A DNA stretch of 14,521 nucleotides from the IMG/VR virus record IMGVR_UViG_2563366855_000007, positions 1-14,521 of that record; one strand, given 5' to 3'. The position numbers and the translations under genes were made by a program. Below are positions 3,174 through 14,521 of this stretch, piece after piece (positions within the stretch are counted from its first letter, which is position 1; each line of letters begins with the position of its first letter). Below the pieces are notes generated by a model, which was given only the letters and a program-made list of their open reading frames with translations, did not search any database and was not told the DNA's origin. Origin of the DNA: a virus. Its lineage: Duplodnaviria > Heunggongvirae > Uroviricota > Caudoviricetes.

Positions 3174-3209
3174 TAAAAAAAGCACGGTAAGGGGTCTACC
3201 GTGCTTTTA
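3174..3209 (-). terminator. Rho-independent terminator ending the Mor operon (possibly bidirectional)
   Basis: Perfect 10-bp stem (3180-3189 / 3197-3206) with 7-nt loop. On the minus strand it is followed by a run of six U; on the plus strand by a shorter T-run (tttt). Confidence 0.7.
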
Positions 3210-3250
3210 TACAATAAGGAGATTTTTGAAAGGACTTTAACAAGCAGGAA

Positions 3251-3649
3251 TTATCTGGATTTGTTAACGTCTTTCGTCTCCTCTGGCAGATCTTCATCAA
3301 ACAACCTGCCCTGCATCCGATCCAGTTCTTCTTTTCTGACCCGCTTAACCACGCTGTAGACCCACTGAAGCGAAACACCAAACTTGCGGGCCAGTTCGTG
3401 GTGGTTGCGTCCGTTAAACTCCCTGAAGATTTCCCGGTCGCGCTGACTGACCTTCCATACCATGCCCATCGGGAAATAAACGTTTTGCCCGCCCCAGACC
3501 TGCATCATTCGGTTCGCGACGGCCTGACCAATCTGGTCGGCAATTGCGGGCTCAATATCAATAATCTCGCGAACGGTCTCAGAGGTATGCTGTGCCAGCT
3601 CCACCAGGAGTTCCGGCCCTTTACTTCGAAACTGATTCAGGTCGCTCAT
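3251..3649 (-). CDS. mor: Mor-family transcriptional activator (Mu middle operon regulator homolog)
   Basis: ATG 3647-3649 with GGGAG SD. Motifs GGQNVYFP ... RDREIFREFNGRN ... LARKFGVSLQWVYSVVKR match the Mor/C family pattern recalled from Mu Mor. Confidence 0.85.
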   Translation of the reverse strand: MSDLNQFRSKGPELLVELAQHTSETVREIIDIEPAIADQIGQAVANRMMQVWGGQNVYFPMGMVWKVSQRDREIFREFNGRNHHELARKFGVSLQWVYSVVKRVRKEELDRMQGRLFDEDLPEETKDVNKSR

Positions 3650-11113: not shown

Positions 11114-11302
11114 TCAGGCTGCCTGAGCTGTTGATTTCAGCCCCAACTTCACGGCGATTTCATGGGATTTACCGTAACGGGCTTTGGTCTGCCCATTGAG
11201 AACGCGGTATACCTCATTGCGGTTGTAGCCGTTTTCTTCTGCCCAGCGGGTGAAAGTGATCCCGCGCTGGCGGAAGAGAGCTTTGACTTGTTCTGCAGTC
11301 AT
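11114..11302 (-). CDS. ner: Ner/Nlp-like small DNA-binding regulator (62 aa)
   Basis: First gene after the early promoter; ATG 11300-11302 with AAGGAG SD. Pattern RQRGITFTRWAEENGY ... GKSHEIAVKLG parallels the Ner/Nlp fold; the assignment is by position and pattern. Confidence 0.55.
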   Translation of the reverse strand: MTAEQVKALFRQRGITFTRWAEENGYNRNEVYRVLNGQTKARYGKSHEIAVKLGLKSTAQAA

Positions 11303-11349
11303 CGTTGTCTCCTTTGTTGATGCAATGATGTTTGCCTTATGTGTGATAG

Positions 11350-11378
11350 ATTATGGTGCAGATTACCTCACCAGTCAA
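11350..11378 (-). promoter_or_regulatory. Early promoter (Pe-like) in the divergent repressor/ner switch region
   Basis: On the minus strand TTGACT (plus 11373-11378), 17-nt spacer, CATAAT (plus 11350-11355), about 45 nt upstream of the ner-like ATG. The spacer contains TGCAGATTACC and a nearby AGATTA repeat, candidate operator sites. Confidence 0.55.
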
Positions 11379-11402
11379 CTTAAAGAGTGCAGAAAAACTC
11401 AC

Positions 11403-11741
11403 ATGATCGGGTTACGTATTAAAGAAGAAAGAGAGCGTCTATCTCTTACACAGCAAGGGTTGGCTGATGCTATAGGTGTGGCAAAGAGAACTTTCATTGA
11501 TTGGGAAAAAGATCGCACTTCTCCTACTGCAGTGCAGTTATCTGCACTATCAGAAATCGGTGTAGATATTTTGTATGTAGTTACTGGGGTGCGGAGTCAG
11601 CCTGTTGTTGCACCTTATGTGTCACAAGAAAAGAAAGAGTTAATGGATGCATTCGACGAAATGAGCCCCGAACAACGGAGGGCAATTCTTGAGGTCGGCA
11701 AAGTCTTCATTCAACCCAAACCAAGCAAACTCGCAGGCTGA
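11403..11741 (+). CDS. XRE-family (Cro/CI-type HTH) repressor, divergent from the early operon
   Basis: ATG 11403 opens directly on the HTH (LSLTQQGLADAIGVAKRTFIDWEKDRTSPT); weak RBS. The track ORF from 11250 begins with GTG and would run through the early promoter. Confidence 0.65.
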   Translation: MIGLRIKEERERLSLTQQGLADAIGVAKRTFIDWEKDRTSPTAVQLSALSEIGVDILYVVTGVRSQPVVAPYVSQEKKELMDAFDEMSPEQRRAILEVGKVFIQPKPSKLAG

Positions 11742-11827
11742 TTTTGACCTGGACACAAAGGACAGGTGGTTGATCTGGATGCTTTCAGAAAACATCGCCA
11801 GTGACATAGTGGAAGTTGTTTGGTTTA

Positions 11828-11859
11828 CCGGAAAGCATTGTGCTTTCCGGTTTTGTTTC
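11828..11859 (+). terminator. Rho-independent terminator downstream of the repressor gene
   Basis: Perfect 10-bp stem CCGGAAAGCA / TGCTTTCCGG (11828-11837 / 11841-11850), 3-nt loop, then TTTTGTTTC. Confidence 0.75.
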
Positions 11860-12622
11860 AGAAGTTGCAGATTACCAGTTCACGGCGCGGCGTGGATTTC
11901 CCCGCCAGACTGTAGTTGATGTTCACTGTCTGTATGTTCAGTCCAGTGAACACCTCGCGCATCTGTGGGATATCGTTCACCGAAATTATCATTTTTCCTC
12001 TGATGCACCGGGCCAGCTCTGCCAGCCGCGAGTAGTTCCCTTCAGGAAAATCCACACCATAGCCTTCCGTACCCAGGTACGGTGGGTCGCAGTAGAACAG
12101 TGTGTGCGGACGATCATAACGCTCAATGCACTGTTGCCAGTCCATGTGTTCTATGACTGTTCTGGAAAGCCGCAGGTGTGCTGCTGACAGTTCTTCTTCA
12201 ATACGCAGCAGGTTGAAGCGTGGCGGGGATGTGGTGGAGGTACCGAAGCTGTGCTCTGCCACCTTGCCGCCAAACGCCTGCTTCTGAAGGTAGTAGAACC
12301 GTGCCGCACGCTGGATATCCGTCAGTGTTTCTTCCGGGGTGATCTGCAGCCATTTGTAGATCTGACGGCTGACCAGCGCCCATTTGAACTGGCGGACAAA
12401 TTCTTCCAGGTGATGCTTTACCACCCGGTACAGATTCACCAGTTCACCGTTGATATCATTGATGACTTCGATCTTGCCGGGTGTCTTAAGAAAATAGAGC
12501 GCTGCTGCCCCACAAAACGGCTCCACATAACATTCATGCGCCGGAAACAGCGGCAGGATGTGTTTTGCCAGGCGACGTTTGCCACCAATCCATGGAACGA
12601 TGGGTAATGTCTTCATTTTCAT
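11858..12622 (-). CDS. Dam-family (D12 class) DNA N6-adenine methyltransferase, orphan
   Basis: ATG 12620-12622. N-terminal PWIGGKRRL, motif I EPFCGAAALYF, catalytic DPPY, C-terminal RRELVICNF. No adjacent restriction endonuclease candidate. Confidence 0.88.
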   Translation of the reverse strand: MKMKTLPIVPWIGGKRRLAKHILPLFPAHECYVEPFCGAAALYFLKTPGKIEVINDINGELVNLYRVVKHHLEEFVRQFKWALVSRQIYKWLQITPEETLTDIQRAARFYYLQKQAFGGKVAEHSFGTSTTSPPRFNLLRIEEELSAAHLRLSRTVIEHMDWQQCIERYDRPHTLFYCDPPYLGTEGYGVDFPEGNYSRLAELARCIRGKMIISVNDIPQMREVFTGLNIQTVNINYSLAGKSTPRRELVICNF

Positions 12623-12663
12623 AATCTGTAAGCCTTTTACAATTATTAAAAATATGGCAGGCT

Positions 12664-12770
12664 AGTCTGGTCTCGCGAGACTGACTGAACCTCGGTCGGC
12701 TCACAGCCACTTCTGTGGGACGATGGCCAGCCCGGTGGGTCCGAAGCACCGGGCTGGTCGTTCTTTCATG
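12664..12770. promoter_or_regulatory. Structured non-coding region upstream of the Dam-like gene: 12-bp perfect palindrome plus GC-rich hairpin
   Basis: GTCTCGCGAGAC at 12670-12681 flanked by AGTC/GACT; 11-bp perfect stem CCAGCCCGGTG / CACCGGGCTGG (12727-12737 / 12747-12757) with 9-nt loop, followed on the plus strand by TCGTTCTTTC. Confidence 0.35.
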
Positions 12771-12813
12771 ATGCGGCAGGGATAGTGGGATTTCTGTTAA
12801 TGTGGTTTAGGGA

Positions 12814-13029
12814 TTATCCGGGGCGATTTTCTGACCTTATCCGGTCCAGGGCATAAGTAATACCTTCTGCAAAAACAGAAGTATCAAACTGCTTTTGTAT
12901 TCCCTGAAAATGAAAAGCGGCACGACAGACACTCAGTTCTCCGCGATGTAACCGGATAATATCTTCCAGAACATTGTTCACTGCTTCAGCACGGCGCTGA
13001 TGTTCTGTTAACGTTAATCGGGGATTCAT
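12814..13029 (-). CDS. Hypothetical protein (71 aa)
   Basis: ATG 13027-13029 with AAGGAG SD 6 nt upstream; no recognisable domain. Confidence 0.4.
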   Translation of the reverse strand: MNPRLTLTEHQRRAEAVNNVLEDIIRLHRGELSVCRAAFHFQGIQKQFDTSVFAEGITYALDRIRSENRPG

Positions 13030-13432
13030 GATGCACTCCTTAAATGATGATTTTTATGCACTCACCGGCAAAATATTCTGCCGATTACTGAACACGCATC
13101 CGGCACCTCAGGTTTTGATTTATTCTGGTTTTTTCGATATCCCGGACCAGGTTGATCACGACCAGAAAAAGTGCCGGTATTTTATTGATACGCTGATATG
13201 GCTTCGGGATAACAGCTATATTCGTTACTCTCAGTTGCTGGCTGTGGGAGCGGCTGATGTCGTCCTCACGGAAAAAACGCTCCGTCTGCTCAATGCCACG
13301 CCGACCCTTCTGCAGCCCCGGCCCGCACCATTTAAAGAGTCACTTCTGGATGCAGTAAAAACCGGTGAAAATGCAGTCATCGCTGAATGCGTATCCCGGA
13401 TTATGCGTTACGTGTTTAATGAACGTAAGTGA
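13028..13432 (+). CDS. Hypothetical protein (about 134 aa)
   Basis: ATG 13028 or 13031 with a weak GGGGA SD. The start overlaps the divergent 71-aa ORF start and the 3' end overlaps the P-loop gene by 25 nt, so it may not be real. Confidence 0.3.
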   Translation: MMHSLNDDFYALTGKIFCRLLNTHPAPQVLIYSGFFDIPDQVDHDQKKCRYFIDTLIWLRDNSYIRYSQLLAVGAADVVLTEKTLRLLNATPTLLQPRPAPFKESLLDAVKTGENAVIAECVSRIMRYVFNERK

Positions 13433-14151
13433 GGTTTATCCGCTGTCTGCATAATCCCGATAGCCAGTGCGAGGGGAAGTAATTCCGGGGAAACTCTTTC
13501 AAACAGCGACTCCCATTCTCCTCTCGCCATCACTCTGTCCAGCCCGCCCCCCAGTTGCATTTCAGCAATCTTCCTGATTTCCCGGAACAACGCCGCTTTG
13601 ATCTCTTCGTGCTCAGCTTTATTTTCCGGTGTCAGAATGTATTCGTCGAAGAACCGGGGAGGCTGGTTAACGGGGAGCGTGTTCACCGGGATGTGTTCCT
13701 GTTTCCCGTACTTCGGGGCAGAAAAACATTCTGTTGGCTGACCGGTGAGTTTACGTAGCTCCTTCATGAGCAGCTCCTGATCGTAAACTGTCATCAGTGC
13801 CGCAATGGTGGCATGCAGTGCATCGGGCAGTATCCAGGGTTGCCGGCCCGTGGGGCATATAACATCCAGCAGCTCATTCGTCCGACAGATACGCTCCTCG
13901 CCGTATGACAACAGGCCCTGTCCCGTGTATTCCTCCAGCTTGATCACTGTGCCACCCCGTGGCTTCTGCCAGGTCGTCAGATCATCGCCACTCATACGCC
14001 GCTCATCATCTACGTCTGCAGCATCGACAATGACGCTGCCCCCGAATTCCTGTTTCACCACTTCCTCTATCCGCGCCAATATGTAACTTTTACCGCTGCC
14101 CACAGGACCGGACACGGTGACAGTGATGACCGGATTCAGTGTCTGCGTCAT
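13408..14151 (-). CDS. P-loop NTPase, kinase-like (247 aa), function unknown
   Basis: ATG 14149-14151 with GAGGAGA SD 7 nt upstream. Walker A GPVGSGKS immediately after an N-terminal beta strand (VITVTVSG), as in small-molecule/nucleotide kinases. Confidence 0.65.
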   Translation of the reverse strand: MTQTLNPVITVTVSGPVGSGKSYILARIEEVVKQEFGGSVIVDAADVDDERRMSGDDLTTWQKPRGGTVIKLEEYTGQGLLSYGEERICRTNELLDVICPTGRQPWILPDALHATIAALMTVYDQELLMKELRKLTGQPTECFSAPKYGKQEHIPVNTLPVNQPPRFFDEYILTPENKAEHEEIKAALFREIRKIAEMQLGGGLDRVMARGEWESLFERVSPELLPLALAIGIMQTADKPHLRSLNT

Positions 14152-14281
14152 ATCGTATTCTCCTCTGTGAATAATTCATCGTTTATCCTGCACATCCCGT
14201 ATCCCCGGCTCTCTTAACGCGCTTTAAAATCCTTCGCGCCCTGTATTTGTGATGCTGTCTCCACCAGACAAGGAGACACAC

Positions 14282-14521
14282 ATGAAAAACCTGAAAAAAT
14301 TCATTCCCCCTGTTAAAAAACCTCGCCTCAGCGGCTGGCTGCTGACCTCAGTGCTGTTGCTGGGCACCATCGCTCTGGTCTCGCCACAGCAGTTGCCTGT
14401 TGTGATCTACAAGCTGGCACTCATCACGCTGGCAGCAGTGCTGGGTTACTGGCTTGACCGTTCGCTCTTCCCCAAAGCCCGTCCCGGTCAGTACCTGAAA
14501 CATGACGACAGGCTGATGGCT
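14282..14521 (+). CDS. Membrane protein, 3'-truncated at window end (at least 80 aa)
   Basis: ATG 14282 with AGGAGA SD 5 nt upstream; no stop before the window end. Basic N-terminus then two hydrophobic segments (LSGWLLTSVLLLGTIALV, VVIYKLALITLAAVLGYWL). Confidence 0.55.
   Translation, partial: MKNLKKFIPPVKKPRLSGWLLTSVLLLGTIALVSPQQLPVVIYKLALITLAAVLGYWLDRSLFPKARPGQYLKHDDRLMA

Follow-up and report, generated by a model that had tools for sequence, protein, structure and literature searches.

Orphan Dam methyltransferases encoded by phages shield phage DNA against restriction and are able to alter the host's programme of gene expression. To our knowledge, the control of phage DNA-modification enzymes is known in detail only for Mom of phage Mu, which is unrelated to Dam. 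Several kinds of small RNA are also relevant here. The cis-antisense RNAs lambda OOP, P22 sar, IS10 RNA-OUT and those of restriction-modification systems are simple stem-loops that overlap the ribosome-binding site or coding region of their targets; the C4 / P4 CI antisense RNAs are phage-borne and structured, with variable loops; and the D12-methyl RNA motif is named for its location beside D12 methyltransferase genes. In Mu, mom is cytotoxic and its translation needs Com, and its weak, C-dependent promoter competes with a divergent and overlapping promoter, momP2 (PMC3378877).

With 97% identity to phage PhiKM, the stretch of DNA analysed here (14,521 nt, referred to below as the window) is a transposable E. 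coli prophage of the BcepMu-like type. Its minus-strand genes include those for a transposase (rve), a MuB-like ATPase, a DUF3102 protein and a Ner-like HTH protein, all identified by Pfam, while a repressor gene (HTH_3, Pfam) occupies 11250-11741 on the plus strand. The gene of central concern is dam, on the minus strand at 11858-12622, with its ATG at 12622; it encodes a D12-class N6-adenine DNA methyltransferase (Pfam PF02086, MethyltransfD12, E = 6e-29). Between the converging 3' ends of the repressor gene and dam lies a perfect 11-bp hairpin, ACCGGAAAGCA...TGCTTTCCGGT (11827-11851), with a T-run on its plus side, which is probably a terminator shared by the two genes. Upstream of dam comes a gap of 191 nt, and beyond it three cargo genes fill 12814-14151, encoding proteins of 71 aa (minus strand), 134 aa (plus) and 247 aa (minus) that belong to PHROGs 4490, 2266 and 3787, all of unknown function; a PADLOC search with these three genes gave no convincing match. 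The holin gene, with its ATG at 14283, marks the start of the late operon. The 191-nt interval recurs in 556 of 5426 complete E. coli genomes (about 1 in 10), many of them pandemic ST131, and is always unannotated.

An earlier note had singled out two features of this gap, a perfect palindrome about 50 nt upstream of the Dam-like start, considered a possible operator, and an 11-bp hairpin at 12727-12757 followed by a T-rich tract, considered an orphan terminator, an attenuator or part of a short unannotated plus-strand RNA. The description itself is exact: the palindrome, GTCTCGCGAGAC, lies at 12670-12681, 48 nt from the dam ATG, and the hairpin is a perfect stem of CCAGCCCGGTG and CACCGGGCTGG around a 9-nt loop, followed on the plus strand by TCGTTCTTTCA. 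We also agree that no annotated plus-strand gene runs into the hairpin, nor is any longer plus-strand gene present. Within the window the palindrome is not unusual on its own, with five perfect 12-bp palindromes found and 3.4 expected from shuffles, and it does not recur elsewhere. The perfect 11-bp stem is unusual (0.06 expected per shuffled window), and a 121-nt stretch folds with z = -4.0. In homologous loci, both features are present as arms of a conserved fold, and comparison of these sequences indicates that palindrome and GC hairpin are two stems of a single structured RNA element of about 100 nt on the plus strand, approximately 12670-12768.

The predicted fold consists of a 5' hairpin, P1, followed by a three-way junction of the helices PJ, P2 and P3, with the 11-bp hairpin included in P3; all are numbered here on the plus strand. 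P1 (12670-12681) is the spacer-less perfect palindrome itself, with transcription predicted to start at about 12669-12670. Its outer part, AGTC (12664-12667) with GACT (12683-12686), co-varies and lies partly upstream of the predicted +1. The junction is closed by PJ, in which GAAC (12687-12690) pairs with GUUC (12760-12763). It contains the conserved unpaired bases C-CUYG-G (C-CUCG-G in the window, 12690-12695), whose core reads CUUG in 39 of 65 sequences and CUCG in 11. P2a, formed by GUCG (12695-12698) and CGAU (12721-12724), changes on both sides among relatives, and P2, formed by CUCACAG (12700-12706) and CUGUGGG (12713-12719), includes a conserved U.G pair; the loop of 6-7 nt at its end (12707-12712) is hypervariable, being different in nearly every relative. 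P3 is a 13-bp stem (12725-12737 with 12747-12759, loop 12738-12746), after which the 3' strand of PJ leads into the pyrimidine tail UUUCA, ending at 12768, the point at which the RNA is predicted to end and which is also a mosaic boundary. Most of the T-rich tract proves to be this 3' strand of PJ, its GUUC pairing with GAAC at 12687-12690, so that the hairpin is better described as an arm of the three-way junction than as the free-standing terminator first suggested. A hammerhead-like core (UGAUGA) was considered and rejected, since its bases vary among relatives, as were ORFs of 20-23 aa in the interval, which lie inside co-varying stems with variable loops.

The E. coli-type alignment, of 41 distinct sequences, was analysed with RNAalifold and by counting pairs against shuffled and slid controls. 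RNAalifold joins the palindrome, the second hairpin and the GC hairpin into one fold in which 99.1% of cells are paired, compared with 24-48% in the slid controls, and 10 pairs show changes on both sides versus 1.9 in shuffles (0/500). In P3, five of the ten pairs change on both sides among these relatives, while the one-sided changes all give G.U on the plus strand and none breaks a pair. One relative from E. coli JNEC-KY180 (L006) illustrates the pattern well, with a different and again perfect palindrome, GTTCTCGAGAAC, four pairs of the GC stem replaced by double changes, and the junction helix changed from GAAC...GUUC to GAGC...GCUC.

A covariance model was built from the E. coli-type alignment and applied to 80 dam loci that had been fetched with the Dam protein, one genome per species. 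It matches 72 of the 80, from beta- and gammaproteobacteria, and every match lies on the opposite strand and abuts the start of dam or of com-dam. A covariance-model scan had also been proposed in the earlier note; with Rfam 15 gathering thresholds, the window and 12 diverse loci gave no family, C4 and D12-methyl included. An Rfam scan of 12560-12880 at E <= 10 gave nothing relevant, its best sub-threshold hits being unrelated miRNA models with E >= 0.095, and no tRNA or tmRNA was detected in a scan for these. When viral contigs were scanned with a pattern, 54 true loci were recovered. The hosts include Enterobacterales (Photorhabdus, Xenorhabdus, Pantoea, Serratia), Burkholderiales (Burkholderia/Paraburkholderia), Neisseriales (Chromobacterium, Iodobacter), nitrifiers, methylotrophs, and Francisella-like and Pseudomonas MAGs. 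The element is not confined to Mu-like phages, as it is found in phiE125, phi1026b and KS9 as well as in B3. The 142-nt gap that separates the spanin gene from the methyltransferase gp27 in phiE125, within a late operon, is filled by the element. In B3, a transposable phage of Pseudomonas, its position is immediately upstream of a homologue of Mu Com, which overlaps dam. In some loci the element is about 165 nt from dam, and the gap encodes Com-like CxxC...CPRC proteins. Such zinc-finger ORFs (RCGHCGRKL...IKCPRC) are seen between element and dam in L137, L138, L095, L089 and L116, and at 1834-2019 in B3 (L146), giving two module types, RNA-dam and RNA-com-dam.

The deep set comprises 73 distinct sequences, and since its alignment was fitted to the covariance model, the following pair counts are inflated: all 42 modelled pairs, including 13 of 13 in P3, show changes on both sides; 92% of cells are paired, compared with 70% when shuffled and 32-47% when slid; the covariation score is 0.53 versus 0.19; P2a and P2 are 91-97% paired, with two-sided changes in every pair; and PJ is paired in 99% of cells. 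In other lineages the GAAC/GUUC of PJ becomes GAGC/GCUC, CAGGGC/GCCCUG, GACAGC/GCUGUC or GGAAGC/GCUUCC. When RNAalifold is run afresh on the deep alignment it recovers the same architecture, and the helices are also visible by eye.

The variation also indicates which strand is folded. The pair cells of the deep set include 336 G.U and 88 A.C, the fold of the plus strand is the more stable in 57 of 65 sequences, by a mean of -9.7 kcal/mol, and the alignment fold energy is -84.6 kcal/mol for the plus strand versus -65.6 for the reverse complement. The excess of G.U, together with the folding energies, points to a folded molecule that is antisense to dam, with compensatory changes belonging to one strand as expected for a small RNA. 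Both the structure and its linkage to dam are well supported by these comparisons.

The predicted promoter is consistent with such an RNA. The -35 hexamer TTTACA (12636-12641, plus strand) lies 16 bp upstream of the extended -10 element TGgCAGGCT (12655-12663; hexamer CAGGCT, 12658-12663), a signature that predicts a sigma-70 promoter with its +1 at the first bases of P1. At the same -35 spacing, relatives have TTTGCA, TTTTCA, TTTCCA or TTCTCA, and in enteric sequences TTtnCA precedes the -10 by 16-17 bp. A TANNNT hexamer ends 6-11 nt before P1 at 51 positions among 52 distinct sequences, with counts of at most 4 at other offsets; it is TAGGCT in most and TAGAAT in Burkholderia, with TAAACT, TAGACT, TACGCT, TAGCAT and TATGAT also found. 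The RNA is thus predicted to have a promoter of its own, with a conserved -10 at a fixed distance. The E. coli-type -10 has C at -12, but it also has TG at -15/-14. The hexamer CAGGCT of the window is weak, and a generic promoter scan made no call there. The generic promoter TTTTCA, 16 bp, TACAAT (12616-12643) was rejected as the promoter of the RNA, its key -11 A being G or T in most relatives (TGCAAT, TTCAAT). The -35 is only 14 nt from the dam ATG, beside the complement of the dam Shine-Dalgarno (12633-12636), and at this distance it overlaps the space needed for a dam promoter or 5'UTR.

For the other end of the RNA there are two indications. In many loci a convergent ORF, in the same direction as dam, ends 5-50 nt beyond the element, implying that the RNA must end there, and homology to differently arranged prophages (KP12, Phi06, L003-L005) breaks at 12768-12769, just past the hairpin; together these suggest a transcript of about 100 nt. 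A scan tool lists a terminator-like site at the GC hairpin, and the predicted promoter about 100 nt upstream on the same strand would supply a transcript to be terminated. An intrinsic terminator would be expected to have a GC hairpin followed by a U-tract of about 6-8 nt. Here the 11-bp stem is followed by UCGUUCUUUCA, with GUUC paired in PJ, and the tail has three consecutive U in the window and 4-6 in Burkholderia types; intrinsic termination is not assured in the E. coli types, with their tail of three U. A riboswitch or leader attenuator would need a downstream gene on the plus strand, and in the window, as in many loci, what follows is a convergent gene, which makes the suggested attenuator unlikely. 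The unannotated short plus-strand RNA that the same note had proposed is, as a prediction, supported by the covariation, the strand-specific G.U pairs and the conserved -10 at its fixed position.

Several observations concern the surroundings of the RNA gene. The segment from the RNA gene to the holin is a variable hotspot, other prophages having different genes there or none. A motif, TTAAYG-N3-TTTA, is found as TTAATGTGGTTTA at 12797-12809, about 30 nt past the RNA gene, and as TTAACGCGCTTTA at 14214-14226, about 55 nt upstream of the holin ATG. In relatives it always lies after the RNA gene and before the next plus-strand gene, be it the holin, DUF2441 or other cargo, and it is possibly a late, Mor/C-dependent promoter element. 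A late-operon leader or a Q/put-like antitermination element was rejected for the RNA, as a copy of the promoter-like motif belonging to the holin lies 1.4 kb away and it is dam, not the holin, that the element accompanies. L006 has two copies of the RNA gene, of different types, at 2566-2711 and 3202-3347, 636 bp apart; they flank an ORF of 126 aa, and of the dam 5' end beside the second copy only about 50 nt are left. A stump of dam next to the RNA gene is seen in L004 too. The module seems to serve as a mosaic joint in recombination. In PhiKM (L001, 12059-12913) the annotated dam begins 90 nt further upstream, so that it runs through P1 and P2, and in B3 (L146, 1567-1792) two tiny annotated ORFs, ORF45 and ORF46, overlap the element; these coding sequences across the RNA gene are probably annotation artefacts.

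Of particular interest is the palindromic nature of P1. Among homologous P1 hairpins, 47 of 57 distinct versions are spacer-less palindromes of at least 6 bp, while P2 and P3, taken as controls, are at background, so that the significance of the palindrome comes from comparison across homologues and not from the window alone. They include more than 30 distinct cores, and the central tetranucleotide takes 11 different forms, with GTCTCGCGAGAC, GTCATCGATGAC, CCTACCGGTAGG, CTTTCGTGCACGAAAG, CCGTAGCTACGG, GCTCACGTGAGC and CCTGGTACCAGG occurring in various lineages. Photorhabdus (L069, L072, L075-L077, L079) provides a natural exception to the rule; there an AT-rich insert with the direct repeat ATCAATAATCAATAA replaces the inner palindrome, and the outer P1 stem is kept. 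A self-complementary loop is not needed by an RNA hairpin, and a protein operator would not vary so freely. Homodimerisation of the RNA, a need for an identical hairpin on both strands, or repeated homogenisation by template switching at a constantly melted start site are all possible origins. A palindrome that is lineage-specific and yet perfect, at the predicted first base of the RNA, has the character of a rule.

The reading we favour, with confidence that is about evenly balanced, is that this locus is a structured RNA gene of about 100 nt, read away from dam, whose promoter and RNA would together serve as a negative gate on dam. The sigma-70 promoter (12636-12663), between the dam ribosome-binding site and the RNA, would start transcription at about 12670, on the first base of the palindrome, and the RNA would fold into the blunt 5' hairpin P1 and the three-way junction PJ/P2/P3, with its short pyrimidine/U tail ending at about 12768. 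The RNA promoter occupies the DNA 14-41 bp from the dam ATG, the very place expected for a dam promoter whose leader is short, and a polymerase that sits on it or fires toward an incoming polymerase may lower dam expression. If transcription enters dam from an upstream gene, such as that for the 71-aa protein in the window or Rz in phiE125, the RNA would match the intercistronic mRNA with full complementarity, making a cis-antisense action possible; it is only with such read-through from a co-directional gene that the overlap of the RNA with the dam transcript is certain. The conserved fold suggests that the RNA product itself matters, and not only its transcription, and it may function as a particle that is probably bound by protein. 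We infer the negative sense of the gating from this arrangement, dam being a late gene, sometimes Com-dependent and presumably harmful if mistimed, that is handled like Mu mom. Some points count against such a gate. The predicted RNA leaves the dam Shine-Dalgarno uncovered, so that simple blocking of the ribosome-binding site would not explain the locus; in KP12 and L003, where dam has no co-directional upstream gene, antisense pairing requires a dam promoter beyond the RNA gene; and the elaborate conserved fold and spacer-less palindrome exceed what a simple antisense RNA or an occluding promoter would need. More tentatively, the element may exemplify a widespread class of phage RNAs that are obligate partners of D12 Dam and Com-Dam, with a palindrome selected at +1, as a symmetric dimer or as a hairpin on both strands, and a protein-bound junction that times a harmful modification enzyme.

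A real RNA need not control dam, and it is conceivable, if rather doubtful, that this one travels with dam as a trans-acting or protein-binding RNA with another task, for instance as a partner or inhibitor of the methylase or of Com, as an anti-defence decoy, or as an RNA that dimerises by its palindromic 5' end. Such a role would accord with a fold kept over large distances, with its unpaired C-CUUG-G, conserved U.G and hypervariable loops, with the palindrome specific to P1 and lacking a spacer, which would permit a homodimer duplex of 12-16 bp, and with the location of the module in a variable cargo hotspot. In every lineage, however, the element keeps a strict place and orientation against the first start codon of dam or com-dam, a better fit to a role in cis. 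No target or partner emerged. Contacts of the tail, the junction and the loops of P2 and P3 with one another (pseudoknot or loop-loop) were no better than permutation controls, and complementarity from loop to junction or from loop to loop falls within those controls.

The palindrome might instead be a double-stranded operator for a dimeric regulator of dam, and the hairpin a simple intrinsic terminator, as the earlier note had proposed, though we regard this as unlikely. P1 is a dyad over a promoter, spanning the predicted +1 to +12 of the RNA promoter; it is symmetric through its centre in most lineages, which is not required of an RNA loop, and its site overlaps the -35 region that a dam promoter would have if its leader were short. 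Pmom of Mu is indeed controlled through a dyad site for C (PMC3378877). An operator would be expected to be conserved in sequence or to co-vary with its regulator, however, and the P1 cores differ in almost every lineage, with only the symmetry kept, while the neighbouring genes vary. Even close relatives with near-identical dam genes and phage backbones differ, as with GTCTCGCGAGAC and GTTCTCGAGAAC; the palindrome is also found in phages that are not Mu-like (phiE125, KS9); and no co-varying DNA-binding gene lies alongside it. The outer P1 G.U pairs and bulges are sensible only in a single strand, the tail of the supposed terminator is part of a co-varying helix, and the palindrome has no second copy in the window. 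What had been read as an operator is more readily seen as the 5'-terminal hairpin of the predicted RNA.

Quite unlikely, in our estimation, is a role for the element in the dam-sense mRNA, on the minus strand, as a 5'UTR or intercistronic translational control that serves as a Com target or sequesters the Shine-Dalgarno, like the translation-inhibition structure of Mu mom. The co-directional upstream genes do read into the element, and com is present in some modules. The complement of the -10, AGCCU, can pair with the dam Shine-Dalgarno region AGGCU, and the corresponding helix P0 (AGCCU, 12631-12635, with AGGCU, 12659-12663), suggested by RNAalifold, changes on both sides without strand bias (20 G.U versus 18 A.C). 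P0 may at most be a pairing that sequesters the Shine-Dalgarno in the sense mRNA; as a helix of the RNA element it was downgraded, having the -10 hexamer as one strand, lying upstream of +1 and showing no strand bias. It falls, moreover, in a gappy part of the model-fitted alignment. The conserved G.U pairs of outer P1, PJ, P2 and P3 would all be C.A mismatches in the sense RNA, and the alignment fold of the sense strand is weaker by 19 kcal/mol. A DNA-level structure, that is, a cruciform or single-stranded DNA fold acting as a priming signal or Frpo-like single-strand promoter, is very improbable. In its favour, G.T wobbles are tolerated in DNA hairpins too, the folded strand is the dam template strand and P1 is a perfect palindrome. 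Against it, a sigma-70 -10/-35 is positioned directly upstream, the stems are all too short to rebuild a double-stranded promoter, for cruciform extrusion arms of 12-16 bp are on the short side, and the host phages have double-stranded genomes and differ in their mode of replication (transposable or lambda-like).

A conserved RNA gene at the start of dam or com-dam, as predicted here, offers a concrete, testable handle on the control of Dam, and a well-supported family can be added to the catalogue of structured RNAs. The module reaches phages of Burkholderia pseudomallei/thailandensis, Pseudomonas, Photorhabdus and environmental proteobacteria. Annotation is affected as well: protein-coding genes are at present drawn across the RNA gene, as in PhiKM dam and B3 ORF45/46.

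In comparison with the systems described at the outset, there is a close parallel with Mu momP2. In both cases the gene concerned is a late and potentially toxic DNA-modification gene of a transposable phage, here sometimes preceded by com (B3, L137, L138, L095, L116), and the element's predicted promoter, which looks constitutive, points away from com-dam or dam and occupies the DNA just upstream of its start. Unlike in Mu, the enzyme is a D12 Dam rather than Mom, and the module is also present in non-transposable phages. The product has a deeply co-varying fold, unlike that of momP2, for which we know of no conserved structured product, and the Mu mom region has no homologue by the covariance model, its best score being 8 bits. 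With lambda OOP, P22 sar, IS10 RNA-OUT and the restriction-modification antisense RNAs the element shares a short structured RNA with its own (here predicted) promoter, placed opposite a gene to be limited, and a stable 5' hairpin. Unlike them, the predicted RNA does not reach as far as the dam Shine-Dalgarno, and its fold includes a three-way junction in which unpaired bases are conserved. C4 and D12-methyl are set apart from it by their Rfam scores, and we found no description of the element in literature on BcepMu sRNAs, on D12-methyl or on antisense RNAs with adenine methyltransferases and prophages. The element is like a Rho-independent terminator in having a GC-rich stem followed by pyrimidines and U on the plus strand, and unlike one in that the bases beside the stem pair with the distant strand of PJ, the tail is only UUUCA, and the hairpin is an arm of a junction. 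Although it belongs to no described family, the element resembles both the divergent and antisense control RNAs and momP2.
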